Positions 40,849 through 55,912 of a stretch of 64,000 nucleotides of DNA are shown piece after piece. Source of the DNA: Bacilli bacterium (GTDB lineage: Bacteria > Bacillota_I > Bacilli_A > ML615J-28 > CAG-698); NCBI GenBank assembly GCA_017450215.1, contig JAFSVH010000087.1, positions 48,287 to 112,286 on the forward strand. Direction: 5' to 3'. The notes under the pieces were generated by a model, which saw only the letters and a program-made list of their open reading frames with translations, had not been told where the DNA came from and did no database searches. Each line of letters starts with the position of its first letter. Positions within the stretch are counted from its first letter, which is position 1. A program made the position numbers and the translations under genes.

Positions 40849-41634
40849 ATGGAAGAAAATATGAAAATAGAAAAAATTGTTTCTTGGAATGTTAATGGAT
40901 TACGAGCTGTAATTGGTAAAGAATTCTTTAAAATTATGGATAATTTCAATGCACAAATTGTTTGTATTCAAGAAACTAAAATGCAAGAAGATCAAATTAC
41001 ATTTTTAGATGATAATCATAAATATAATGATTATTATTTTTATTCATCTAGCGCTATTAAAAAAGGTTATTCTGGTACAGCTATATTTACTAAAATTGAA
41101 CCATTAAGTGTTAAATATGGACTTGATGATGGTAAATATAATGATGAAGGAAGAATAATAACATTAGAATTTGATAAATTTTATTTGGTTAATATGTATG
41201 TACCTAATGCCAGAGAAGGTTTAGTTAGAATTGATTATCGTCTTGAATATGAAGATGATATTAGGTCATATCTAAGTGAACTTAAGAAAACAAAGAATGT
41301 TATTGTATGTGGTGATTTGAATGTTGCTCATAATGAGATTGATTTAAAGAATCCACAAAGTAATATTGGTAATCCAGGTTTTAGTTATGAAGAACGTGAT
41401 GCCTTTGGTAAATTATTAAATAGTGGTTATATTGATACATTTAGACATTTATATCCAGATAAAGTTAAATATAGTTGGTGGAGTTATCGCTTTAATGCGA
41501 GAACGAAAGGAATTGGTTGGAGAATAGATTATTTTCTTGTGAATAATGAATTTATTGATGCGGTTAAGGATAGTGAAATATATGATGATATTTATGGTAG
41601 TGACCACTGTCCTGTTGCTATTATTTTAAAATAA
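40849..41634 (+). CDS. xth: Exodeoxyribonuclease III (AP endonuclease, EEP family)
   Basis: 'IVSWNVNGLRA', 'QETK', 'GDLNVAHNEIDL', C-terminal 'SDHCP' motifs. Confidence 0.85.
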   Translation: MEENMKIEKIVSWNVNGLRAVIGKEFFKIMDNFNAQIVCIQETKMQEDQITFLDDNHKYNDYYFYSSSAIKKGYSGTAIFTKIEPLSVKYGLDDGKYNDEGRIITLEFDKFYLVNMYVPNAREGLVRIDYRLEYEDDIRSYLSELKKTKNVIVCGDLNVAHNEIDLKNPQSNIGNPGFSYEERDAFGKLLNSGYIDTFRHLYPDKVKYSWWSYRFNARTKGIGWRIDYFLVNNEFIDAVKDSEIYDDIYGSDHCPVAIILK

Positions 41635-41644
41635 TAATTATTAG

Positions 41645-42409
41645 GTGTTTATTATGAATAATATAGATAATAAAAAACTACAAAAATTATATGAACTCAT
41701 AAATAAAAGCAATCGTATTGTTTTCTTTGGTGGTGCTGGTGTTTCAACTGCATCTGGTATTCCAGATTTTAGAGGTGCTAACGGTTTATATTCTTATACT
41801 CCTGAAGAGATAATAAGTCATTCTTTCTTTGTGAGAAATCCTAAAATGTTCTATGATTTCTATCTTGATAAAATGGTATATCATGATGCTTTGCCTAATG
41901 CTTGTCATAAGTTACTAGCAAAATTAGAAGAAGATGGTAAATTATTATCTATTGTGACTCAAAATATTGATGGCTTACATCAAGAAGCTGGAAGTAAAAA
42001 GGTTAGAGAATTGCATGGATCTATTAAAAGAAATTATTGCATGAAATGTCATAAATTCTATACATTAGAAGAACTAGAAAGTAGTTTAAAAGATGGAGTT
42101 CCAAGATGTAGTTGTGGTGGGATTATAAAGCCTGATGTTGTTTTATATGAAGAACCACTAGATAATGATACAATGTATGAAGCAGTTGATGATATTAGAC
42201 GTGCTGATTTATTAATTGTAGCAGGAACTAGTTTAGTTGTTTATCCTGCTGCTGGATTTATCAGATATTTTAATGGTGATAATATTGTCGTTATTAATCT
42301 TGGTAGAGCTAATGAAAATGCCTTCTATGGATTAAATAAAGATATATTATATATTGATGGTAGAGTTGAAGAATATTTAAATATTGGTAATTTAAATAAT
42401 TTGAAATAA
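41645..42409 (+). CDS. cobB: NAD-dependent protein deacylase (sirtuin, CobB family)
   Basis: 'GAGVSTASGIPDFRG', 'TQNIDGLH', zinc CxxC...CxxC ('CMKCH...CSCGG'). Confidence 0.8.
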   Translation: MFIMNNIDNKKLQKLYELINKSNRIVFFGGAGVSTASGIPDFRGANGLYSYTPEEIISHSFFVRNPKMFYDFYLDKMVYHDALPNACHKLLAKLEEDGKLLSIVTQNIDGLHQEAGSKKVRELHGSIKRNYCMKCHKFYTLEELESSLKDGVPRCSCGGIIKPDVVLYEEPLDNDTMYEAVDDIRRADLLIVAGTSLVVYPAAGFIRYFNGDNIVVINLGRANENAFYGLNKDILYIDGRVEEYLNIGNLNNLK

Positions 42410-42440
42410 GGTATATTAAAAAAGATGAAATGGTGGATGT

Positions 42441-43976
42441 ATGAGCAGCAAGGAATTAAAAGATATTGAAAGAAGCTTGATAAAGAAATTTAGAGGAGAA
42501 ATTTGGGCTAAGTTTGTTCAAGCAGTTGATGATTATAAGTTAATTAATGAAGGTGACAAGGTTGCTGTTTGTATGTCTGGTGGTAAAGATTCATTCTTAA
42601 TGGCTAAACTTTTTCAAGAATTGAAAAAGCATTGGCTTGTAAAATTTGATCTTGTTTTTTTGTGCATGAATCCTGGCTATAATGAAGTTAATAAAAGTAA
42701 AATTATTGAAAATGCCAATTACTTAGATATCCCACTTGAAATGTTTGAAACATCAATATTTGATAGTGTTAATAACATTGAAGATTCACCTTGTTATATT
42801 TGTGCAAGAATGAGAAGAGGATATTTATATCGTGAAGCCAAGAAGAGAGGATGCAATAAAATTGCATTAGGTCATCATTTTGATGATGTAATTGAAACTA
42901 CTTTAATGAGTATGCTTTATGGTAGTCAAGTTCAGACTATGGTACCAAAGATTATTAGTTCTAATGTAAGTGGAATGGAATTAATTAGACCAATGATAAA
43001 AATCAAAGAAGAAGATATCATTAGATGGTCTAATTATAATGGACTTGAATTTATTAATTGTGCTTGCAAGATGACTGAGAAAAAGCTTGATGAAGATAAA
43101 GATCAAGGTAAAAGAAAAGAAATCAAGAATTTGATTAAAAAATTAAAAGAAGTATATCCTATTGTTGATATTAATATTTTTAAATCAATGGAAAATGTTA
43201 ATTTAAATATGGTATTAGGATATAAAGATGATAATACGAAATATAATTTTTTAGATATTTATAATGCAAATAAAAACATTAGTGATTATAATTATAATGA
43301 TGCTTTATCTAGACAAATCGCTTTAATTGGCTTAGAAAAGCAAGAAAAGATTAAAAATAGTAAAGTCTTAATTTTTGGTCTTGGTGGTGTTGGTAGTTAT
43401 GCTTTAGAAGCAATAGTAAGAAGTGGTGTTGGTGAAGTTGGGATTGTTGACAACGATTGTTTAAGTGTTAGCAATCTTAATAGACAATTAATTGCTACAC
43501 TTCCTAATATTGGCAAGAAAAAGATTGATGTTTGTGAAGATAGAATTAAATCAATTAATCCAAACTGCATTGTGAAAAAATGGGATAATTTTGTATTAAA
43601 TAATAGTAATGAAATCTTTGACTTTAAATATTATGATTATGTCATTGATTGTATAGATACTGTTTCAGGGAAAATTGATATTATTACTTCGTGCACTAAT
43701 TTAGGTGTTAAAGTTATATCATCAATGGGAACAGCAAGAAAAATGGATCCTACAAAATTAGAAATAACTGATATTTATAAGACTCAAAATTGCCCTCTTG
43801 CTAAGGTTATGAGACATGAACTAAAGAAAAGAGGAGTTAAAGAATTAAAGGTAGTTTATTCAAAAGAAGATCCAATCATTAACGAAGATACTCAAGTATT
43901 GGGTAGTGTAAGCTTTGTACCAAGTGTTGCAGGGTTATATATAGCAAGTTATGTTATAAATGATATTGTGAAGTAA
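42441..43976 (+). CDS. Fusion protein: N-terminal TtcA-family PP-loop tRNA thiolase domain + C-terminal ThiF/TcdA-type E1-like domain (tRNA threonylcarbamoyladenosine dehydratase-like)
   Basis: N-terminal 'CMSGGKDS' PP-loop with Fe-S cysteines 'CYIC' and 'CAC'. C-terminal 'KVLIFGLGGVGSYALEAIVRSGVGEVGIVDNDCLSVSNLNRQ' Rossmann E1 motif without a rhodanese domain (TcdA/CsdL-like). Total 511 aa. Confidence 0.7.
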   Translation: MSSKELKDIERSLIKKFRGEIWAKFVQAVDDYKLINEGDKVAVCMSGGKDSFLMAKLFQELKKHWLVKFDLVFLCMNPGYNEVNKSKIIENANYLDIPLEMFETSIFDSVNNIEDSPCYICARMRRGYLYREAKKRGCNKIALGHHFDDVIETTLMSMLYGSQVQTMVPKIISSNVSGMELIRPMIKIKEEDIIRWSNYNGLEFINCACKMTEKKLDEDKDQGKRKEIKNLIKKLKEVYPIVDINIFKSMENVNLNMVLGYKDDNTKYNFLDIYNANKNISDYNYNDALSRQIALIGLEKQEKIKNSKVLIFGLGGVGSYALEAIVRSGVGEVGIVDNDCLSVSNLNRQLIATLPNIGKKKIDVCEDRIKSINPNCIVKKWDNFVLNNSNEIFDFKYYDYVIDCIDTVSGKIDIITSCTNLGVKVISSMGTARKMDPTKLEITDIYKTQNCPLAKVMRHELKKRGVKELKVVYSKEDPIINEDTQVLGSVSFVPSVAGLYIASYVINDIVK

Positions 43977-44526: not shown

Positions 44527-44603
44527 GTCCTAGTAGCTCAGTTGGATAGAGCGATAGCCTCCTAAGCTGTAGGTCGGGGGTTCAATTCCCTTCTAGGACG
44601 CCA
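44527..44603 (+). tRNA. tRNA-Arg (anticodon CCT), CCA encoded
   Basis: Cloverleaf readable. Acceptor GTCCTAG/CTAGGAC. D-arm GCTC/GAGC. Anticodon stem ATAGC/GCTGT with loop CTCCTAA. T-loop TTCAATT. 3' GCCA. Confidence 0.85.
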
Positions 44604-44657
44604 TATTAGTTGTACTATATTGATACCAAGAAAAATATCAATATTTGTAATAAAATT

Positions 44658-44688
44658 GGGTAAAATCGGTGTATTTTGCCCTTTTTTT
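44658..44688 (+). terminator. Rho-independent terminator after the tRNA (GGGTAAAAT cggtgt ATTTTGCCC + TTTTTTT)
   Basis: 9-bp stem (one G-U) plus a 7-T run. Confidence 0.6.
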
Positions 44689-44753
44689 ATGCTTTTATAG
44701 TAAAAATGATGAGAAATATAGGATAAAAATCTTAAAAAAAGTTGATCATCAAT

Positions 44754-44832
44754 AAATTTTTACACGATTACAATTGATTTTACACGTTTTACACGATTTG
44801 AAGACAATTTTACACGATTTTACACGATTTAA
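44754..44832 (+). repeat. Iteron-like direct repeats, family A: five copies of (TTT)TACACGATT(T) at about 10/20-bp phasing
   Basis: Copies start at 44761, 44781, 44790, 44811, 44821. Confidence 0.7.
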
Positions 44833-44837
44833 AAAAG

Positions 44838-44925
44838 AACCTTTTAGAGGTTCGTGAACGATTTGGGGGGTTCGTAAACGATTTGAGGGTTCGTGAACGA
44901 TTAGGGGGTTCGTGAACGATTTCAG
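44838..44925 (+). repeat. Iteron-like direct repeats, family B: four copies of GGGG(G)TTCGTGAACGATTT at 19-20 bp spacing, preceded by the palindrome GAACCTTTTAGAGGTTC
   Basis: Copies start at 44851, 44871, 44890, 44909. Each core has a mini-palindrome TCGT-GA-ACGA. Family A and family B share the ACGATT core. Confidence 0.7.
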
Positions 44926-45557
44926 ATTTTCATGCATTTTTTATCATTTACTAGTCTAAAAAATGTTCCTCTAGATACTCCTATTATTTTAGCAGCTTCT
45001 ATGTTGGTAAGTTGATGATTTATATATTGGGTTAGAATCTCATCGGTGTTAGGTGGGGTGACCGCTCTAGGTCTTCCAAACTTAACACCTTTTTCTTTTG
45101 CTATTCTTATTCCTTCCATCTGTCTTTCTCTTATGTTGTTCCTCTCATTCTCCGCAACAAAGCTTAATACTTGTAAAACAATATCACTTATAAACTTACC
45201 GACTAGATTCTTGCCTTCTATTCTAGTATCCAAAAGGGGCATATCTAATACTTTAATATCAGCACCTATTGTTTTTGTGATTCTTGTCCATTCTTCTAAT
45301 ATCATATGATAATTTCTACCTAAACGATCTATTGACTTAATAATCAGTAGGTCGTCTTTTTTTATTTTCTTTATTAATCTTTGGTAATTAGTTCTATTAA
45401 AGTCTTTCCCTGATTCTTTGTCTATATAAATGTACTTGTCTTCAATATTAAGAGTTTTAATCTCTTCATATTGCCTGTCTATTTTTTGTTGTTTCGTGGA
45501 AACACGTATGTATGCATATATCATTGAATTAATACCTCCGCTCTCATATATAGCCAT
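44922..45557 (-). CDS. Small serine recombinase (resolvase/invertase family) with C-terminal HTH
   Basis: N-terminal 'YAYIRVSTKQQ' catalytic-Ser motif, 'DRLGRN' motif, C-terminal 'AAKIIGVSRGTFFRL' HTH. 211 aa. Confidence 0.85.
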   Translation of the reverse strand: MAIYESGGINSMIYAYIRVSTKQQKIDRQYEEIKTLNIEDKYIYIDKESGKDFNRTNYQRLIKKIKKDDLLIIKSIDRLGRNYHMILEEWTRITKTIGADIKVLDMPLLDTRIEGKNLVGKFISDIVLQVLSFVAENERNNIRERQMEGIRIAKEKGVKFGRPRAVTPPNTDEILTQYINHQLTNIEAAKIIGVSRGTFFRLVNDKKCMKI

Positions 45558-45800
45558 AAAAGAAAAAATTATTCAAGCAAAACAGGTATAAAAAAAGAAG
45601 CATCAAAGAAGATATAAAAATGTATACCTTTTGATACTTCGTTATTTCTTTTATTATACCATGATTTTTATGAAAATTCCACGAAAAAATTGAATAATAA
45701 GCTAATTTTGAAATTTTTTGATATAACTTCAATCATTCTAATTAACCATACAATTTTAGACTAACAAGATTGTGTAATCTTAAAAAGAGGTAATTAGAAC

Positions 45801-46751
45801 ATGGATTTTATTAGATCACCATTAAATTATACTGGAAATAAATTTAGGATTTTAGATCAAATAGTTCCTTTATTTCCAAAAAAAATATCATGTATGATTG
45901 ATCTGTTCTGTGGTGGAGCTACTGTAGGATTGAATGTAAAAGCGAATAAAATAATTTTTGTTGATTCAAATGAGCATATCATCAATTTGTTGGTCTATTT
46001 ATCAAAGCATTCTTTCGAATCAGTACTTTGTTCTTTTGAAAACATTATTAATAAATATAATCTTTCTTATTCATATAAGTACGGATATAAAAAATATAGA
46101 GATTATTCAAAAAATAAAAATGATAATAATGGATTAAAAGAATACAATAATAAAGGCTTTTACCTGCTTCGTGATGACTATAATTCTTTGATAGATAAGA
46201 ATACAGATGAAGCCAATGCTATGCTTTATATATTAATGGTATATGCATTTAATAATGATATACGATTTAATTCGGATGGTGATTTTAATCTTCCAGTTGG
46301 AAAAACGGATTTAAATCGAATGAATGTAAATAAAATACGACAATATATAGATAGAATTAAAAGTATTAATGCAGAGTTTGTTTGTACTGACTTTACAAGT
46401 GATGATTTTCAATTATTGGTCAAAAAAGCTGACTTCATATATATGGATCCACCATATTTATTGGGTGATGCTGTATACAATTCTTGTTGGAACAATGAAA
46501 TGGAGCATAAATTATTAGATTTCATTGATTATATTAGAAATGAAAAAATTGATTTTGCCTTATCAAATGTTATGACAAAAATTGGAAAAACAAACGAGCC
46601 ACTTTCCTATTGGGTTTATAAAAATAAAGATTATTTAAAAGTAAATCACATTAAATATAATTATCGCAGCTCAAGTTATAACAAAATAATGCGCGATGCA
46701 AAAGAAGATGAAGTACTCATTTGTAATAAGAGGTATCGCCATGAAAATTAA
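45801..46751 (+). CDS. Dam-like (D12 class, alpha group) N6-adenine DNA methyltransferase 1
   Basis: 'YTGNKFRIL' N-terminus, motif I 'DLFCGGATVG', motif IV 'IYMDPPYL'. RBS AAGAGG. Confidence 0.8.
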   Translation: MDFIRSPLNYTGNKFRILDQIVPLFPKKISCMIDLFCGGATVGLNVKANKIIFVDSNEHIINLLVYLSKHSFESVLCSFENIINKYNLSYSYKYGYKKYRDYSKNKNDNNGLKEYNNKGFYLLRDDYNSLIDKNTDEANAMLYILMVYAFNNDIRFNSDGDFNLPVGKTDLNRMNVNKIRQYIDRIKSINAEFVCTDFTSDDFQLLVKKADFIYMDPPYLLGDAVYNSCWNNEMEHKLLDFIDYIRNEKIDFALSNVMTKIGKTNEPLSYWVYKNKDYLKVNHIKYNYRSSSYNKIMRDAKEDEVLICNKRYRHEN

Positions 46752-47751
46752 TAATAGACGATACATAGGATGTAAAACGAAATTATTAGACTTCATTTAT
46801 GATTCAGTTGAAAGATACAACATTTCTAAAGACTCGGTATTTGCTGATATTTTTGCAGGAACGGGAGTTGTAGCTTATAGATTTGCTTTAGAAGGATATA
46901 AAACAATTTTAAATGATACTTTATTTTCAAATTATGTGATTTATAAAACTATTTTTAATAATGAAATAATGAGAATAGATTTGTTGAAAAACGAAATAAA
47001 TTATTTTAATTCAATAGATAGTGATTCATTAAAAGCAAATTATTTTTCAAACACTTATGGTGGAAAATACTATTCTTTTGATAATGCCAAAAAAATAGGA
47101 TTTATAAGAGATTACATTGAAGAAAACAAACAAAAGTATAATGAAAGGGAATATTACTATTTAATTACCTGTTTATTATATGCATGCGATAAAATTGCAA
47201 ATACAGTTGGACATTTTGAATCATATCTACATAGTGCTCCTAAAGGAGAAAAACTTATGTTAGAAGAGTTTGAGATGAATAGCAATCTTCCTGAATCTTA
47301 TATATATAACGAAGATGCTAATAATCTTGCAAAAAAAATAAATGCAGATATTGTATATATTGATCCTCCTTACAATGCTAGACAATATGTGAATTTTTAT
47401 CATGTTTTAGAAAATTTAGCAAGGTGGAATAAGCCGACTGAATTTGAAGGAAAATCAATGAAATTTAAACGAGACAATCTTAAAAGTGATTATTGTAGAA
47501 GTAAAGCACCTTTATTGTTTGAGGATTTAATTCAATCACTAAAATGTAAATTAATTGTTGTCTCATATAATAATACATACAATGCAAAAAGTGTATCCTC
47601 TAATAATACAATTAGTGAAGATCAAATAATTGAAATATTAAGTAAAAAAGGAAATGTAACTATTAAGACAATTGATTATAGTGCATTTAATGCTGGCAAA
47701 ACAGATTTAAAAAATCACAAAGAATATTTGTATATATGTGAGGTATTTTAA
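46741..47751 (+). CDS. Dam-like (D12 class) N6-adenine DNA methyltransferase 2. Start chosen at ATG 46741 (RBS AAGAGG) rather than the ORF-track start 46696.
   Basis: 'RYIGCKTKLL' Dam N-terminal signature, motif I 'DIFAGTGVVA', motif IV 'VYIDPPYNA'. Overlaps MTase 1 by 11 nt. Confidence 0.8.
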   Translation: MKINNRRYIGCKTKLLDFIYDSVERYNISKDSVFADIFAGTGVVAYRFALEGYKTILNDTLFSNYVIYKTIFNNEIMRIDLLKNEINYFNSIDSDSLKANYFSNTYGGKYYSFDNAKKIGFIRDYIEENKQKYNEREYYYLITCLLYACDKIANTVGHFESYLHSAPKGEKLMLEEFEMNSNLPESYIYNEDANNLAKKINADIVYIDPPYNARQYVNFYHVLENLARWNKPTEFEGKSMKFKRDNLKSDYCRSKAPLLFEDLIQSLKCKLIVVSYNNTYNAKSVSSNNTISEDQIIEILSKKGNVTIKTIDYSAFNAGKTDLKNHKEYLYICEVF

Positions 47752-48668
47752 TGACAATACTTGAATACTATATTAAACAACAATCCATTGATATTTGGTA
47801 TGAAAAGTTCATTAGTAGTTCAAATAAACAAAGTGGAAAATCATTTAGTTATGTTAATACTAACTATAGAAATTTACTTTCATTTTTAATTCAATTTGAT
47901 CGATTTAGATCAAAAGTAGGAATTGAACGAAAAGATTGGAATGACAAATTGCCTGGTGGACAAGAATTAGACAAACATAGAATATCTAATTTGATTTTGT
48001 CGGGATTTATTCGAAAGGAAGACACTTATTATTACTATACACCAAAAGGTGTTGCTGCTTTGGATTTAATAGATAAAAACTATGGTGATTCCATAAAATG
48101 GATATTATTATACTTACTTCTTTTAGATTATAAAAGTGAAAATAGAAACTGCGATATTATTCACACTACAAAAGATCTTTTTTCAAAGTTACAATCAATT
48201 GGTTATACAAATGAATGTATATTAAATAGTCTAAGAAAAATAATAAAAGTAACTGATAAAATAAAACTTTTTAACGAAGATATATTTTGGTTGATCTCGT
48301 TTGTTAATGATGAAGATTTTATTAAAATGTATAAGAATAGTAGCGAACAAGAAAAAAACGATTTGAAAGAATTTGTAATTAATCGTTCAAAAGACGAACA
48401 TAGTACTGATTTGATAGCACACAAATACACACCTGGTGGAATTTATAGTGGAATAATGTTTAGGGAAGATGTTAAGGTATTTTATTATACATATAAAATA
48501 ATTGGAATACTTTCAGAGCCATTTGATTCATTTATTAATGAAATAATAAAAGTATATTGTGAAGATTTTTGTTCAGAAAATGACGCTGATATAATAAAAG
48601 AATTCATTAGCAGTCATAAAAGTATTTATATTAAAGTTAAACAAGAATTATTAATGGGGGTAAAGTAA
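47751..48668 (+). CDS. Hypothetical 305-aa protein, translationally coupled between the MTases and the GmrSD-like gene; candidate restriction endonuclease or specificity partner
   Basis: Start ATG overlaps the MTase 2 stop (TAATG). No recognised motif. A loose D...(D/E)xK candidate sits at 'TDLIAHK...FREDVK'. Position after paired MTases is where Type II REase genes sit. Confidence 0.3.
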   Translation: MTILEYYIKQQSIDIWYEKFISSSNKQSGKSFSYVNTNYRNLLSFLIQFDRFRSKVGIERKDWNDKLPGGQELDKHRISNLILSGFIRKEDTYYYYTPKGVAALDLIDKNYGDSIKWILLYLLLLDYKSENRNCDIIHTTKDLFSKLQSIGYTNECILNSLRKIIKVTDKIKLFNEDIFWLISFVNDEDFIKMYKNSSEQEKNDLKEFVINRSKDEHSTDLIAHKYTPGGIYSGIMFREDVKVFYYTYKIIGILSEPFDSFINEIIKVYCEDFCSENDADIIKEFISSHKSIYIKVKQELLMGVK

Positions 48669-48669
48669 A

Positions 48670-50742
48670 ATGCCAAATGTAAGACCTGATAGATTTGAAT
48701 TATTAAGATTTTTTAAATATGCTCCAAATACCCAATTTGTAATCCCTGTATATCAAAGAAATTATATATGGACTGCCAAAAAACAAGTAAGAAAATACTT
48801 AGATGATTATAAAGCTGTATTAAGTGGTGAGCGTGTAAAACATTTTATTGGTATTATAATGTACTTACAAATACAAAGAAGCATTGGATTTTTTGAATTT
48901 TCTGTAGTTGATGGTCAGCAGAGATTTGTAACCACATTTTTGATGCTATATGCTTTAAAGAAAATTGCTATGGAAGCTGGTAATCTTACTTTCGCGACTC
49001 AAATTAATGATTTATATTTAACAAATCAATATGCGAAAAATTATAATGATAAACTAAAATTAAAACCATTGGTATCTGATGATGATGTATTCAGCAAAAT
49101 AATAAAAGATGATCTACAGAATTTAACAAAAGAAGAAAAAAAGTCGAATGTTTATATTAATTATATTACTGTAAAAAAATATTTAAAAGAACTATATGGA
49201 CATTTTCAACTAGAACAAATGTTAGAAGCTTTTGATAAGTTTTATTTTGTTGCAATTCCATTAGATAGTAGTGAAGATGATGCTCAAAAGATTTTTGAAA
49301 CCATAAATTCTGCTGGTGCTGCATTGACAAAATCAGACTTAATTCGAAATTATATTTTGATGAATATGCAGAGCTATGAGCAAGATAGATTATACAAGGA
49401 ATATTGGTATCCTATGGAAAAATCTTTTGCTAGTTCTGGAAAAATAGAAAATTTCTTTAGAATGTTTTTGGCTAATAGAAATTACAATCTAAGTAATATG
49501 GAAGACATTTATGATGTTTTTCAAATTTGGTTTGATAAAAACAGATCAAATTATGGAATAGAACAGTCTTTAAAAACAATTTGTAAATATGCAAAATATT
49601 ATAATGATTTATTTATTAAAGAAAAGGTTGAAATTGCTCCAGAAATAGATGTTGCTTTAAAAGAATTCAAAAAAAATGCAATAGAACCTACTGCTCCTTT
49701 GTTAATGGAAATTTATAATCTATACGATAGTAAAGATGATAAGAACGACCGCCTTGTTTCAGCTATGGAATTTGCAAAGATTATTAATTTATTTAATATT
49801 TATAATGTTAGAAGAAATATTTGCAATCAAAGAACTGGTATATTAACTCGTATAGTTCCATTAATGTTGAAGTATGTTCTTGATAATTGCGATGGTGTCT
49901 ATTCAAAGATTTATGAACATTGTGTTCGTTATCTAGTAGACAATTCAAAAGGCAAGCAATCATTTATGCCAGATGATGAATATTTGAAATTAAATTTATC
50001 TGGTGCTAATGCTTATAGTTTGAGAAATTATGTAAAAACTATATTTGAAAAGATAGAGTCATATAATAATCCTGCAGTAATTGATTTTTCAAATTTAAGT
50101 ATAGAACACTTAATGCCACAGACTCCAACGGATGAGTGGCTTAAAACTTTGAATATAAAAAAGGAAGACTACGAATTTAATGTTCATAGACTTGGTAATT
50201 TAACTCTTGCTACGTCAGTAGATAATAGTAAAATGTCAAATAATCCATTTGAATATAAAAAGCAAGTTCTTCAAAATACATCTCATTTAAAAATGAATAT
50301 GGAGATAATTAACAAACCAACGTGGGGAATAAAAGAAATAGAGGAAAGAACTGCATATTTAATTCAAAAAATATGCGATTTATATCCATATGTTTCAGTT
50401 GGAGAGCAAACTGTTAATCATTATAATGTTTATTTAAAGAATGATAATTCTGACATATCTGCATTTTTGTTTTCGGATGAAACAATTGAAATTCAAGAGG
50501 GTAGCATAATAAAATGCTCATATAATAATTTCATTAGGGACTTGGTTGAAGATGGAATAATAAAGGAATCGGGAGAAAAATACGAATTTTTGCAACCATA
50601 TTCATTTAGTAATATTGAAGAAGCAACAAATACAATGGCACCCGATATTACAAATTGCTGGGAATCATGGGTAGACTATAATAAACAACCATTAAGTCTT
50701 GAATTAAGAGCAAAGTTGCTAAATTCTAAAGCAAAAAAATAG
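48670..50742 (+). CDS. GmrSD-family Type IV restriction-endonuclease-like protein (N-terminal DUF262 ParB-like NTPase/nickase + C-terminal DUF1524 His-Me finger nuclease)
   Basis: DUF262 'VVDGQQRF' (DGQQR) motif. C-terminal 'IEHLMPQTP...HRLGNLTLATSVDNSKMSNNPF' HNH-like DUF1524 motif. 690 aa. Starts 1 nt after the previous stop. Confidence 0.75.
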   Translation: MPNVRPDRFELLRFFKYAPNTQFVIPVYQRNYIWTAKKQVRKYLDDYKAVLSGERVKHFIGIIMYLQIQRSIGFFEFSVVDGQQRFVTTFLMLYALKKIAMEAGNLTFATQINDLYLTNQYAKNYNDKLKLKPLVSDDDVFSKIIKDDLQNLTKEEKKSNVYINYITVKKYLKELYGHFQLEQMLEAFDKFYFVAIPLDSSEDDAQKIFETINSAGAALTKSDLIRNYILMNMQSYEQDRLYKEYWYPMEKSFASSGKIENFFRMFLANRNYNLSNMEDIYDVFQIWFDKNRSNYGIEQSLKTICKYAKYYNDLFIKEKVEIAPEIDVALKEFKKNAIEPTAPLLMEIYNLYDSKDDKNDRLVSAMEFAKIINLFNIYNVRRNICNQRTGILTRIVPLMLKYVLDNCDGVYSKIYEHCVRYLVDNSKGKQSFMPDDEYLKLNLSGANAYSLRNYVKTIFEKIESYNNPAVIDFSNLSIEHLMPQTPTDEWLKTLNIKKEDYEFNVHRLGNLTLATSVDNSKMSNNPFEYKKQVLQNTSHLKMNMEIINKPTWGIKEIEERTAYLIQKICDLYPYVSVGEQTVNHYNVYLKNDNSDISAFLFSDETIEIQEGSIIKCSYNNFIRDLVEDGIIKESGEKYEFLQPYSFSNIEEATNTMAPDITNCWESWVDYNKQPLSLELRAKLLNSKAKK

Positions 50743-50749
50743 AGGACTA

Positions 50750-51409
50750 ATGATGATGACAAAAGGATTTATTTATATTTTAACTAATCCATCTTTCGAA
50801 GGTCATGATTGGGTGAAAATAGGCTACACAAAGAATGTGGAAAAAAGAAGAAAGGATTTGTCCACTACCGCATTACCTTTTGAATATGAGATATACGCAT
50901 ATTATGAATTACCAGAAGGAGTTGAACTAGCAGATAAAGCTGTTCATAATCTTATCCAACAATTGAATCCAGGCATTAGATTAAATCCCAATAGGGAATT
51001 CTTTGATATGAAACCAGAAGATGCATATAATTTATTAAATTGTATTGCTAAAATTAATGGTAAGGAACTAGTTAATGGACCTGGTAGAATAGAATATGAA
51101 AAAACTTTACAAATAAAAACAAAAGATTCGCCCAAAAAATATCCTAAAATGGATTGGCTAATGGAACAGGGAGTAATTAAGCCAGGTGATGACATTTATG
51201 TCGTAAACCATCCGGAAGATGTTGCAACTATAATTGATGCTGATACTGTGGAATATAATGGCGATAAATTATCTTTTAATCAATTTGGATGTAAAGTTAC
51301 TGGATGGAGTGCTATACAGACATATGCATTAATGAAAAAGGTTGGTTGCAGCGAAACACTTCATGAATTAAGATTGGCAAAAATGCAGGAAGTTAATTGG
51401 AAAGGTTAA
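50750..51409 (+). CDS. GIY-YIG-like (T5orf172) nuclease-domain protein with C-terminal DUF4357
   Basis: 'GFIYILTNPSFEGHDWVKIGYTKNVEKRRKDL' matches the T5orf172/GIY-YIG pattern. C-terminal region is of DUF4357 type. 7 bp after the GmrSD-like gene. Confidence 0.65.
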   Translation: MMMTKGFIYILTNPSFEGHDWVKIGYTKNVEKRRKDLSTTALPFEYEIYAYYELPEGVELADKAVHNLIQQLNPGIRLNPNREFFDMKPEDAYNLLNCIAKINGKELVNGPGRIEYEKTLQIKTKDSPKKYPKMDWLMEQGVIKPGDDIYVVNHPEDVATIIDADTVEYNGDKLSFNQFGCKVTGWSAIQTYALMKKVGCSETLHELRLAKMQEVNWKG

Positions 51410-51527: not shown

Positions 51528-53000
51528 GTGTTAGGAAAAGAACAATATTTGAAATTGCAAGAATTAAAAGAATTGGGATTATCAAAACTAAAAGTATCTG
51601 AAAAACTAAATCTTTCATATAAGACTGTTTGTAATTGGTGGGATAAGGACGAATCATATTTTGAATCTTTTGAAAAAGAACATGAGTTTATGCTTGATAA
51701 TTATCGTCAATACATTATTGAGATATTAAAAATAAGTCCTCAAATTCATAATACAGTAATATTAAGAAGGATTAAAGATGACTTTAAAGATTTTGATGTT
51801 CCAAAGCAAACATTTTTTAGGTACATTAAAAAACTGAGAGAACAATCTGGTTTAATTAAACCACCTAGAAAGTTTCAAATTAGAGAACAAACAGAACCAG
51901 GATATGAAGGACAAGTTGATTTTGGTCAGTATGTTATGCAAACGGCATACAAGAAGAACATAAGAATATATTTCTTTTGTATGACATTATCATATTCCAG
52001 AATGAAGTTTGCTTGTTTTAGTGTAGAACCATTTGATGCTAGAATGGTAGTAGATGCTCACATTGCCGCATTCAAGTACTTTGGTGGAAGACCGCAAATG
52101 CTAGTATATGACCAAGACAAAACAATGGTAGTATCAGAGAATTTAGGAGAAGTAGTATTTGTTAAAGAATTTGAAGATTTTATCAAACAAACAGGATTTT
52201 CAATTTATCTATGTAAAGGTTATGATCCATCTACTAAAGGTAAGATTGAAAAAACTGTAGACTTTGTTAAACATCAGTTTTTAGATGGAAGAATCTATTA
52301 TGGCCTTGATAGACTTAATTGTGAATTTATTGATTGGTTAGATCGTGAAGGAAATGGATTAATTAATGACACAATAAAGAAAGTTCCACGAGATATGTTT
52401 AAGCATGAATATCCAAAACTTCAAAAGTTTTATGAAATTAAAAATGATGATATTGTGGTTCATACTGTTTATCATGATACTGTTGAATATAAGGATAATC
52501 TGTATAAGCTTCCTCAAGCATTAGTTGATGAAGGAGATAGAATTAGAATTGAAAAGTACGACGATGATTTACTATTTTACCATGCATTAACAAGTGAACT
52601 ATTGTGTAAACATAAGATAGTTGGTGGAATGGGTAATATTGTAACACTAAAAGATGAGAAAATAGTTAATGATACAGTAGAAGAAGTATTATTAAAAGAT
52701 TTCAAAGATAGTGATGTAGCGATTAAGTTTATTAAAAGAATGAGAGAACAAAAACCAAGATATGTATATCCTCAGTGTAGAAGGCTCCAAAGTATGAGAA
52801 AGTATTATTCTGATAAGGCGATAATAGATGCAATGGAATATTGTGTTAGTGTTGACACATGTACGATATTTGAATTATCTAGTTATCTAATTTATAAAAT
52901 GGGAGATACAATAGCTAAGAAGTTTATAACTACACATGTTATAAGACATTATAAGGATAGAGCAGAAGAGATTAGAAAGGAGTTAATTAATAATGGCTGA
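51528..53000 (+). CDS. istA: IS21-family transposase IstA (HTH + DDE integrase core)
   Basis: N-terminal HTH 'LSKLKVSEKLNLSYKTVCNW'. DDE core 'GQVDFGQ'. 490 aa. GTG start with RBS AGGAGGTG. Confidence 0.85.
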   Translation: MLGKEQYLKLQELKELGLSKLKVSEKLNLSYKTVCNWWDKDESYFESFEKEHEFMLDNYRQYIIEILKISPQIHNTVILRRIKDDFKDFDVPKQTFFRYIKKLREQSGLIKPPRKFQIREQTEPGYEGQVDFGQYVMQTAYKKNIRIYFFCMTLSYSRMKFACFSVEPFDARMVVDAHIAAFKYFGGRPQMLVYDQDKTMVVSENLGEVVFVKEFEDFIKQTGFSIYLCKGYDPSTKGKIEKTVDFVKHQFLDGRIYYGLDRLNCEFIDWLDREGNGLINDTIKKVPRDMFKHEYPKLQKFYEIKNDDIVVHTVYHDTVEYKDNLYKLPQALVDEGDRIRIEKYDDDLLFYHALTSELLCKHKIVGGMGNIVTLKDEKIVNDTVEEVLLKDFKDSDVAIKFIKRMREQKPRYVYPQCRRLQSMRKYYSDKAIIDAMEYCVSVDTCTIFELSSYLIYKMGDTIAKKFITTHVIRHYKDRAEEIRKELINNG

Positions 53001-53655
53001 TAATATTGAAATACAAGCACTTGCTAGAGTACTTAATTTACAAAACATAGCTAATGGTAATATTGATCTAAATAATGAAAGAATATCAAATAAAGATTAT
53101 TTATATCAGATTTTACTTGAAGAAGTAAATATTAGAAATAAAAACAAGTTAATGGATATTAGAAAAATGGCTAAGCTTCCTAATAAGGTATTTGATGAAA
53201 CAAGAATAACTGAAGGATTAAAGTGGCAATTATCTAAACTTAAAGAATTTGATTTTAAATTAAACAAACAAAACATATTTATTGTTGGGGACTGTGCAAC
53301 AGGAAAAACTTCTCTTGCAACACTATTAGGCAATAAAGCACTTGACAAAGGTGCTAAAGTATCTTACATTACTTATGATGATTTAGTTATTGAATCTAAA
53401 ATAAAGAAAAGAGTATGGAATCATATTTTAGAATCTGATGTACTAATACTAGATGATGTGTTTTATTTACCACCAACTGAAGAAGAACTAATTCAAATAT
53501 ATAAGGTTTTAATGTTTTTACAAGAAACAAGGAGTATTATTGTAATTACTAATAGAAGCTTATCTAGTTGGAAAGATATGAAGGTAGATACACATTTAAT
53601 TGAGACATTGCAAAAAAGACTGATGCAGAACGCTCAAATAATTACACTTGGCTAA
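52993..53655 (+). CDS. istB: IS21-family helper ATPase IstB
   Basis: Walker A 'FIVGDCATGKTSLA'. Walker B 'VLILDDVF'. Overlaps istA by 8 nt. Confidence 0.85.
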   Translation: MADNIEIQALARVLNLQNIANGNIDLNNERISNKDYLYQILLEEVNIRNKNKLMDIRKMAKLPNKVFDETRITEGLKWQLSKLKEFDFKLNKQNIFIVGDCATGKTSLATLLGNKALDKGAKVSYITYDDLVIESKIKKRVWNHILESDVLILDDVFYLPPTEEELIQIYKVLMFLQETRSIIVITNRSLSSWKDMKVDTHLIETLQKRLMQNAQIITLG

Positions 53656-55048: not shown

Positions 55049-55630
55049 ATGAATAAAAATGAAGTTACATTTGACAAAAGATATTATGATATTAAAGAAC
55101 TACTATCAATGGGATTTAGTTATTATAAAATAAAGAATCTTGTAGATATAGGCATATTTAATAAACTTAGTAAATCACTTTATGAAAATAATAATTATCA
55201 AGGTAATATTAATGATTTTGAAACTGTATGTGCTTATGTTCATCAAGGTGTTGTTTGTATGCTTTCTGCTGCAAGATTTTATAATCTCACTAATTATATT
55301 CCTGATTCAGTCGATATTGCGATAGATAGGAAGATGAAAATATCTAGTTATCCTGCTTCACCATCTATAAATGTTTGGTATTTTAGTAATGAGCGCTATG
55401 AGGAAGAAGTAATTACAGTAGATAAAGAAAGGCAATTTAAAATCTATAGTATTGAAAAAACCGTTATTGATATTATTTATTATCGTAATCGTGTAGGAAT
55501 AGAGGAAACTAAAGAAGTGCTGAACAATTATCTAAAAAGGAGCGATAGAGATCTTATTAAACTACATAAACTTGCAAGTAAGCTTGGTTGCATAAAAATA
55601 CTTAAGACATATTTAGAGGTATTAGTATGA
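55049..55630 (+). CDS. AbiEi-family antitoxin-like transcriptional regulator (type IV TA)
   Basis: Size (193 aa), N-terminal wHTH-like region, and its stop overlapping (ATGA) the start of an AbiEii-like N-terminus. Family call from pattern memory. Confidence 0.55.
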   Translation: MNKNEVTFDKRYYDIKELLSMGFSYYKIKNLVDIGIFNKLSKSLYENNNYQGNINDFETVCAYVHQGVVCMLSAARFYNLTNYIPDSVDIAIDRKMKISSYPASPSINVWYFSNERYEEEVITVDKERQFKIYSIEKTVIDIIYYRNRVGIEETKEVLNNYLKRSDRDLIKLHKLASKLGCIKILKTYLEVLV

Positions 55631-55912
55631 TTAGTGCTGATTCAGTCAAGAATAGACTATATAATAAAGCTAAAGCAACAGGTAAAAAGGAATATAGTTA
55701 AATTTCCGGAAGATTTAATGTTTCAATTGACAATATCCGAATATAATAAAATCTTGATGTCACAAAATGTGACATCAAACTGGTTATTGGAAGGTTTTAA
55801 AATAATGAAAGATCTAGTAGATGTAACTAGTTTTGATACTTTGCAAAGAATTAAATCTTTCTTCATAAGTGATAATGAAATTACATTCCATGAATATTGT
55901 GATAAATTTTAA
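55627..55912 (+). pseudogene. Frameshifted and 3'-truncated AbiEii/AbiGii-family nucleotidyltransferase toxin gene
   Basis: Frame 1 'MISADSVKNRLYNKAKATGKKEYS*' matches the typical AbiEii N-terminus and stops at 55699-55701. It continues in another frame ('FPEDLMFQLTISEYNKI...') to a stop at 55912, about 100 aa where full-length proteins are about 280-300 aa. No NTase GG(S/T) motif. Confidence 0.5.

Follow-up and report, generated by a model that had tools for sequence, protein, structure and literature searches.

A GmrSD-family nuclease gene from an uncultured Bacilli genome is the fourth gene of a compact five-gene defense operon, in which it is preceded by two adenine methyltransferase genes (M1 and M2) and a gene called ORF305 and followed by a T5orf172 gene. 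At a probability of roughly 45%, we tentatively read this operon as a methylation-protected restriction system in the style of LlaI and LlaJI, in which ORF305 would read the site and GmrSD would supply the NTPase and the nuclease. Slightly more doubtful is the corresponding role of the nuclease itself, which, guided by a separate recognition protein, may provide the NTP-driven cleavage in a classical restriction-modification (R-M) system protected by methylation, that is, be a GmrSD equivalent of LlaJI; the GmrSD family has so far been known only as modification-dependent (Type IV) or phosphorothioate-sensing nucleases. The mechanism is deduced from gene context, the starting points being the observed domain content, operon packing, cassette conservation and modular architectures of the ORF305 relatives. 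The features concerned are the following (positions are those of the window, i.e. the whole stretch of 64,000 nucleotides that was analyzed):

44527-45557, no strand assigned: island border with tRNA-Arg, short direct repeats and serine recombinase
44527-44603, + strand: tRNA-Arg(CCT) (ARAGORN)
44756-44927: short direct repeats
44922-45557, - strand: serine recombinase (Pfam Resolvase, E = 3.8e-26)
45558-45800, + strand: intergenic region 5' of M1, presumed operon promoter
45801-46751, + strand: M1, D12-class (Dam family) N6-adenine DNA methyltransferase, 316 aa, DPPY and FCGG motifs
46741-47751, + strand: M2, second D12-class N6-adenine methyltransferase, 336 aa, DPPY motif
47751-48668, + strand: ORF305, predicted sequence-recognition (DNA-binding) subunit, 305 aa, between M2 and GmrSD
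48670-50742, + strand: GmrSD-family NTPase/His-Me nuclease with C-terminal RAMA-like domain, 690 aa, ATG start
48730-49356, + strand: DUF262 of the GmrSD ORF (DGQQR at 48910-48924)
49969-50367, + strand: DUF1524 of the GmrSD ORF (EHLMPQ at 50104-50121)
50383-50739, + strand: DUF4357/RAMA-like domain of the GmrSD ORF
50750-51409, + strand: T5orf172 (GIY-YIG-like) protein with C-terminal extension, 7 nt after the GmrSD stop
51528-53655, + strand: IS21-family element (istA, istB) just 3' of the cassette (Pfam rve, IstB_IS21)

The five genes lie head to tail, overlapping or at most 7 nt apart, and each is preceded by a Shine-Dalgarno-like sequence. The start of M2 overlaps the end of M1 by 11 nt (its most likely start is the ATG at 46741, with the ribosome-binding site AGAGGT; the mechanical ORF begins at 46696, and M2 homologs measure 336-342 aa), the start of ORF305 overlaps the stop of M2 (TAATG), and the ORF305/GmrSD junction (TAA at 48666-48668, one A, ATG at 48670) is a gap of 1 nt. 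No terminator-like site was found on the + strand between 45801 and 51409. The initial annotation had called the nuclease gene co-operonic with m6A methyltransferases, a claim borne out by this packing, by the lack of such a terminator and by the persistence of the arrangement in at least seven further contexts. It had also placed the gene directly behind the methyltransferases, 1 nt after the previous stop; the gap is right, but the stop is that of ORF305, which had been overlooked. The C-terminal domain of GmrSD (aa ~572-690) and the T5orf172 gene had been missed as well. In the presumed promoter region, the promoter-like matches are weak (45670-45698 and 45708-45736, 9/12 each) and fewer than in shuffled sequence of this AT-rich DNA, and no C-protein-like or regulator-like ORF of at least 20 aa was found upstream of M1. 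The island begins at the tRNA-Arg(CCT) gene and also bears an AbiEi gene.

Judged by its domain content, the product of 48670-50742 is a genuine member of the GmrSD family. It combines an N-terminal DUF262 with DGQQR (Pfam GmrSD_N, PF03235, E = 7.4e-30, aa 21-229) and a C-terminal DUF1524 His-Me finger with (D/E)H...N (GmrSD_C, PF07510, E = 2.2e-25, aa 434-566), so that the two hallmark motifs reported initially, DGQQR and HLMPQ...N, are both found. The translation reads SVVDGQQRF at aa 78-86 (DGQQR being aa 81-85), SIEHLMPQTPTDEW...HRLGNLTLATSVDNSKMSN from aa 477 and EHLMPQ...GNLT...DN from aa 479; residues D81, G82, Q83, Q84, R85, E479, H480, N510 and N519 are all invariant in a family alignment of 42 sequences. 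The PADLOC model of HEC-06 (PDLC04157) covers the full core (E = 6.3e-53, aa 20-566), and the PADLOC model 'Orf5' (PDLC02693) fits better still (E = 3e-100). The closest solved structures by sequence are an unnamed DUF262 protein (20yv, E = 1.9e-14) and SspE (6jiv, E = 1.4e-11). BrxU was not detected by the GmrSD family profile at E <= 0.01, and a contig scan with the single GmrSD protein as query recovered one distant locus only.

The intact catalytic motifs and the match to the single-gene HEC-06 model also speak for another scenario, in which GmrSD would be an autonomous Type IV enzyme that cuts foreign-modified DNA by itself (5mC, 5hmC, glucosyl-hmC, like BrxU and GmrSD) and travels with the methyltransferases. 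It would be kept beside m6A-type enzymes since it is not in conflict with the mark they set, the operon would be a two-pronged defense cassette, and ORF305 would be either a regulator or the remnant of a restriction enzyme minus its HNH domain. HEC-06 defends alone, and the nearest tested relatives (HEC-06, BrxU and GmrSD) all defend as single genes (bioRxiv 10.1101/2024.01.29.577857). Moreover, GmrSD-like genes are embedded in other systems elsewhere, BrxU in BREX and RloF in Type I loci (PMC4619093, PMC12707154). We nevertheless regard this scenario as rather unlikely, since it gives no role to ORF305, which is conserved at full length, is translationally coupled to GmrSD and has as homologs recognition modules that are in every case fused to a nuclease or encoded ahead of one.

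ORF305 itself has no match in Pfam, PADLOC or NCBIfam. Its AlphaFold2 model, obtained with 17 homologs, is confident (pLDDT 87.4) and all-helical, with one winged helix at aa ~75-100 and no nuclease fold, and the protein is predicted to be a winged-helix DNA-binding or recognition protein without nuclease. ORF305 as the nuclease of the operon is ruled out by the same model. The model weakly resembles the recognition domains of FokI and N.BspD6I; when the profile of the ORF305 family was compared with the FokI homolog, the result was negative (probability 0.5%), so that homology to the FokI recognition domain is not established. Similarly, tblastn of ORF305 and of the homolog from locus L109 (see below) against the plasmid collection gave no match, and neither homology to LlaI.1 nor a link to the lactococcal LlaI plasmids is thus demonstrated. 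Scans of viral contigs with ORF305 alignments found nothing.

The relatives of ORF305 are more informative. Among 1.84 billion representative proteins, a profile search recovered 130 of them, in three architectures: stand-alone proteins of about 305 aa, proteins of about 460-490 aa with an HNH nuclease at the C-terminus (P0138, P0163), and proteins of 580-930 aa fused to a McrB-like AAA_5 GTPase (P0146, P0149, P0151, P0152, P0179, P0184, P0233). In the first four of these AAA_5 fusions (P0146, P0149, P0151, P0152), the N-terminal 300 aa are the part homologous to ORF305. Whether the relatives carry HNH, are fused to the McrB-like GTPase or precede a McrB-like plus LlaJI-type pair, they always follow the same pair of methyltransferases, M1-M2. 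In two loci (L105, L107) no other defense-like gene accompanies the HNH-fused form; there, it is therefore the restriction enzyme in an R-M system of three genes, and self DNA that is methylated must escape it. In another locus (L106) a different GmrSD-type gene lies downstream of it, and in L009/L010 it is adjoined by a divergently oriented GmrSD-DUF4357 gene. In L109, a stand-alone ORF305 homolog (39% identical) comes after the M1-M2 pair, and the next two genes encode a McrB-like protein and a RE_LlaJI nuclease. P0151 joins the ORF305 homolog and the McrB-like protein of L109 end to end in one chain (aa 1-309 against the former, 47%; aa 314-876 against the whole of the latter, 42%), which shows that proteins of the ORF305 type cooperate with the NTPase of the downstream gene. 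In a neighbor-joining tree of the family, reconstructed without support values, the ORF305 proteins linked to GmrSD form a monophyletic group that is sister to those linked to McrBC, and the HNH clade falls outside.

These contexts lend no support to the Type IV label that the nuclease had been given. The operon has a recognition protein without nuclease, and the effectors of its relatives are HNH or McrBC/LlaJI-type; since these relatives belong to methylation-protected systems, a role blocked by modification is equally or more plausible. Nor is the operon devoid of cognate methyltransferases, as a Type IV system would be: two intact D12 genes stand in it, and they are conserved in the other loci with the cassette (L001-L008, L035).

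The core M1-M2-ORF305-GmrSD is found in at least seven further distinct contexts (contigs L001-L008, plus L035 from a metagenome scan), with GmrSD proteins that are 53-76% identical. The order M1, M2, ORF305 homolog, GmrSD is the same in every cassette of L001-L008 and L035, and the surroundings vary, from prophage-like regions (with portal, repressor and primase genes) to an integrase and IS elements. The ORF305/GmrSD junction is always either a gap of 1-2 nt or an overlap of 4-8 nt in the cassettes examined. The fifth gene is less constant: it encodes T5orf172 in the window, L004 and L007/L008 and a PLD nuclease with a DpnI-type winged helix (PLD-wH) in L001 and L002, and L003 and L005/L006 have no comparable gene. 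Across seven cassettes, the divergence of ORF305 is in step with that of GmrSD (Spearman 0.93, a correlation that could come from mere adjacency); M2 tracks both moderately (0.64) and M1 neither (0.09). No close DNA relatives of the cassette were found by megablast in the plasmid and phage collections.

Taken from these results, several arguments favor a coupling between ORF305 and GmrSD. ORF305 is conserved yet nuclease-less, and each of its relatives either has a cleavage machine attached or lies ahead of one; the sister clade fuses ORF305 to the downstream NTPase, and GmrSD holds the equivalent position; finally, all examined cassettes show translational coupling of ORF305 and GmrSD, and both diverge in step in the seven compared. 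Against it, none of the 130 family representatives is an ORF305-GmrSD fusion. Furthermore, GmrSD-DUF4357 relatives (38-46% identity) adjoin R-M systems that have their own nuclease, namely a FokI homolog (L055), AlwI-type enzymes (L011, L046) and an ORF305::HNH protein (L009, where the gene lies on the opposite strand), and one relative is found on a 13.5-kb Lactococcus plasmid with no methyltransferase annotated in the 10.7 kb inspected. The GmrSD family can therefore act without ORF305, as an autonomous Type IV enzyme would. In addition, since the GmrSD-linked ORF305 clade is monophyletic, the constant linkage of both genes may go back to a single evolutionary event.

The two Dam-like enzymes noted initially upstream of the nuclease are indeed D12-class proteins, each with DPPY and a Pfam PF02086 match (M1, E = 2.3e-27; M2, E = 1.3e-29). 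M1 is also recognized by PADLOC MTase_II (PDLC03383, E = 1.6e-84) and by NCBIfam TIGR00571 (dam, 124.9 bits, above cutoff), and M2 by PADLOC PDLC03373 (E = 6.9e-113). Both match, in PADLOC, fused methyltransferase models of 646-722 aa, M1 in the C-terminal half and M2 in the N-terminal half. An artefact from a tandem-duplicated methyltransferase is ruled out, as each protein matches a different half. The pair is 33-36% identical to the methyltransferases beside the complete FokI homolog of L055.

Because M1 and M2 match the two halves of fused FokI-type methyltransferases, each would methylate one strand of an asymmetric site. According to the preferred reading, ORF305 would bind this same site when it is unmethylated, and GmrSD, translated right after ORF305, would contribute the NTPase (DUF262) and the His-Me nuclease (DUF1524) and cut foreign DNA. 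ORF305 and GmrSD would be physically coupled and together be the 'R' of this system of the tRNA-Arg-linked island, and methylation would block cleavage. The RAMA-like C-terminal domain may provide an extra DNA contact or a read-out of the methylation state, and the T5orf172 gene would be an exchangeable accessory nuclease.

LlaJI sets a precedent for this mechanism, as a Type IV-type machine that, in combination with methyltransferases, is directed against sites lacking methylation (PMC1459862, PMC12707154). LlaJI, LlaI and BsuMI are Type II systems with McrBC-like, NTP-dependent restriction subunits; they target unmethylated DNA, and their recognition module is separate from or fused to the NTPase, with the nuclease elsewhere (PMC1459862). 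Like them, the window has two methyltransferases and restriction genes in one operon, the asymmetry of the site being deduced here from the halves of the fused models, and its recognition module is separate from the NTPase, ORF305 being homologous to the stand-alone L109 protein and to the part N-terminal to the NTPase in the AAA_5 fusions. Unlike them, the operon has neither a McrB-like AAA+ GTPase (AAA_5) gene nor a McrC/RE_LlaJI PD-(D/E)XK nuclease gene: the slot of the McrB/McrC-like pair is filled by a single GmrSD polypeptide with ParB-like DUF262 and His-Me DUF1524. Besides, the LlaJI methyltransferases are m5C enzymes, whereas those of the window are m6A enzymes of the D12 class. FokI-type Type IIS systems share with the window the two methyltransferase halves, M2 corresponding to the N-terminal and M1 to the C-terminal one, and the logic of a recognition domain plus an unspecific cleavage module, but the FokI combination of D1-D3 recognition subdomains and cleavage domain was not found, the cleavage domain being absent from the operon.

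The third domain of GmrSD (aa ~572-690, ~120 residues) appears to have a RAMA/SAND-like fold. DUF4357 (PF14267) scores 19.8 bits there, below the Pfam gathering cutoff of 38.4, and Pfam PF18755 has no match; PF14267 is present by Pfam in GmrSD homologs at 42-46% identity. The genomic neighbors of two sets of homologs were compared. Around DUF4357-bearing homologs (33-43% identical; 25 metagenomic loci, 73 neighbors), the top family is the D12 methyltransferase, with nine of the 73 neighbors; others include further adenine or N4 methylases, a complete FokI homolog, AlwI-type enzymes and McrB-like genes. A single neighbor (1/73) is a C5 methyltransferase, which would fit an avoidance of cytosine methylation by an autonomous Type IV enzyme. 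In contrast, GmrSD homologs without DUF4357 (29-32% identical, 41 loci) neighbor Type I and Type IIG genes, and D12 methylases are absent from their 25 commonest neighbor families. The link with a pair of Dam-family methyltransferases is therefore a trait of the DUF4357-bearing subfamily and not of GmrSD enzymes generally. Thus the placement behind methyltransferases, initially deemed atypical, is so with respect to BrxU and GmrSD but habitual for this subfamily. The autonomous Type IV scenario explains neither this clade-specific association with the D12 pair nor the presence of a RAMA-like domain, a type of domain linked to adenine methylation (PMC4738411).

The same domain suggests a further alternative, in which it would read m6A and GmrSD would be an adenine-methylation-sensing nuclease. 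Either GmrSD would attack a foreign m6A pattern (Dam-type or phage hypermethylation) or, as for SspE with phosphorothioate, the self mark of M1 and M2 would set its activity, the methyltransferases being shared with whatever conventional nuclease is present. RAMA domains occur in fusions with N6-adenine methylases as well as with nucleases, ParB-type and T5orf172 domains among them, and were proposed to be m6A discriminators (PMC4738411, Iyer et al. 2016); they are also listed among candidate Type IV readers (PMC11037411). The fold at aa 572-690, the specific association of the subfamily with m6A methyltransferases and the position of SspE as the closest by sequence among the named solved structures are consistent with such a sensor. 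So is the PLD-wH gene that comes next in L001 and L002: this family shows Dam-dependent toxicity (PMC11037411), and m6A-directed nucleases do hence accompany the cassette. On the other hand, a structural study of MPND found no preference for m6A (PMC9963953). We hold this alternative to be improbable, well behind even the autonomous Type IV enzyme. The RAMA-like domain makes the adenine-methylation state a more specific candidate for sensing than modified cytosine.

With respect to the known members of its family, the window protein has in common with GmrSD, BrxU and HEC-06 the DGQQR of DUF262, the (D/E)H...N of DUF1524 and a similar length of the two-domain core, and BrxU is likewise embedded in a defense operon in the same orientation. 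It differs from them by its distant sequence, by the additional RAMA-like domain and by the translational coupling of its gene to a recognition protein and two methyltransferases in a conserved cassette. SspE, a phosphorothioate-sensing nickase of the GmrSD family, is also functionally tied to a co-encoded DNA modification module; its N-terminal DUF262 is detectable by profile, but only ~90 residues align, and the modification in the window is m6A. No sspABCD or dnd genes are among the annotated neighbors of the operon.

Fusions of ParB/DUF262 nucleases with RAMA or DUF4357 and their loose link with adenine methylases were noted before, by Iyer et al. for RAMA (PMC4738411) and by Machnicka et al. 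2015, who already listed the GmrSD+DUF4357 architecture (PMC4619093); a literature search found no experimental data on any GmrSD-DUF4357 member. These two surveys are without the conserved four-gene cassette, the ORF305 recognition module and the exchange of this module among HNH, McrBC-like and GmrSD effectors, all of which appear to be new. Should ORF305 and GmrSD work jointly, McrBC would be joined by a second nuclease family that crosses the boundary between 'Type IV' and 'Type II', and thousands of genes labelled only 'DUF262/DUF4357 domain-containing protein' could not be assumed to target modified DNA. In that case, the ORF305 family would also be a portable sequence-reading module, naturally combined with three cleavage machines and of interest for enzyme engineering. 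If the nuclease is autonomous, the operon would instead be an ordinary clustering of defense genes. The window system offers a tractable test of the proposed reading of adenine methylation by RAMA-type domains, a point on which published MPND data disagree.

The fifth gene product matches Pfam T5orf172 (E = 1.2e-13) and also MUG113, as well as PADLOC PDC-S57 (E = 1.6e-49), and its aa 120-208 weakly match the C-terminus of methyltransferase models (PADLOC, E = 1e-3). The idea that the C-terminal domains of this protein and of GmrSD are the same domain is unsupported (hhalign probability 1.9%). The five operon proteins are identical to MBQ7276902-06 of a 'Bacilli bacterium' metagenome-assembled genome, which NCBI names as Dam family methyltransferase, hypothetical protein, DUF262 domain-containing protein and GIY-YIG nuclease family protein.

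The two cassettes that are closest to that of the window, on contigs L001 and L002, share the M1-M2-ORF305-GmrSD arrangement and carry as their fifth gene:

L001, 12109-12942: PLDc_2 nuclease plus DpnI_C winged helix
L002, 6400-7233: PLDc_2 nuclease plus DpnI_C winged helix

This fifth gene belongs to the 'PLD-wH' family, for which toxicity in Dam+ cells has been reported (PMC11037411). The presence in both cassettes of a gene from a family with this toxicity implies that GATC methylation would not be what their M1 and M2, both D12-class N6-adenine methyltransferases, write. In a comparison of the window with L001-L007, covering seven cassettes, M1 diverges in a pattern incongruent with the one shared by the other three genes: the window M1 is nearest to that of L005 and the window GmrSD is nearest to that of L001. 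This pattern suggests that M1 has been swapped between cassettes. For the nuclease, the nearest solved structure by sequence is an 818-aa 'DUF262 domain-containing protein' (PDB 20yv / 20yw, E 1.9e-14).

Two other loci with ORF305 relatives carry further genes:

L106, 8411-10270: GmrSD-type gene without DUF4357 (GmrSD_N, E 8e-35; GmrSD_C marginal, 22.7 bits)
L109, 6922-9800: HamA and a helicase, a Hachiman-like pair, 3' of the McrBC/LlaJI version of the cassette

In L106, the GmrSD-type gene follows that of an ORF305::HNH enzyme and does not have the C-terminal domain of the window subfamily; GmrSD-type genes have therefore joined the ORF305-linked R-M family more than once. L109 is a further case of stacked defence genes. 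Finally, the ORF305-family protein P0144 (463 aa) combines the ORF305 domain with a C-terminal extension of ~160 aa that matches no Pfam family at E<=0.01. In the neighbour-joining tree of ORF305 relatives, P0144 clusters with the AAA_5-fused clade, and its extension may represent a fourth type of effector module.

The surroundings of the window operon comprise the following features:

51528-53655: IS21-family element, istA with rve and istB with IstB_IS21
55049-55912: AbiEi antitoxin gene (PADLOC, E 3.9e-72)
44756-44927: repeat family 1, five copies of TTTTACACGATT
44756-44927: repeat family 2, four copies of GGTTCGTGAACGATT
within 40849-43976: Exo_endo_phos protein
within 40849-43976: SIR2 protein
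within 40849-43976: PP-loop ATPase-ThiF fusion, 511 aa

Since the IS21-family element begins <120 bp 3' of the T5orf172 stop, the operon's original 3' end may be disrupted. The AbiEi gene is followed by nothing but a 92-aa ORF6N fragment and, as the AbiEii toxin gene is absent beside it, the AbiE pair looks degenerate. The two families of short direct repeats, with a spacing of 19-20 nt, are located between the gene for tRNA-Arg(CCT) and that for the serine recombinase; they may be recombinase sites or att-related sites. The last three genes listed stand immediately 5' of TrmL and the tRNA.
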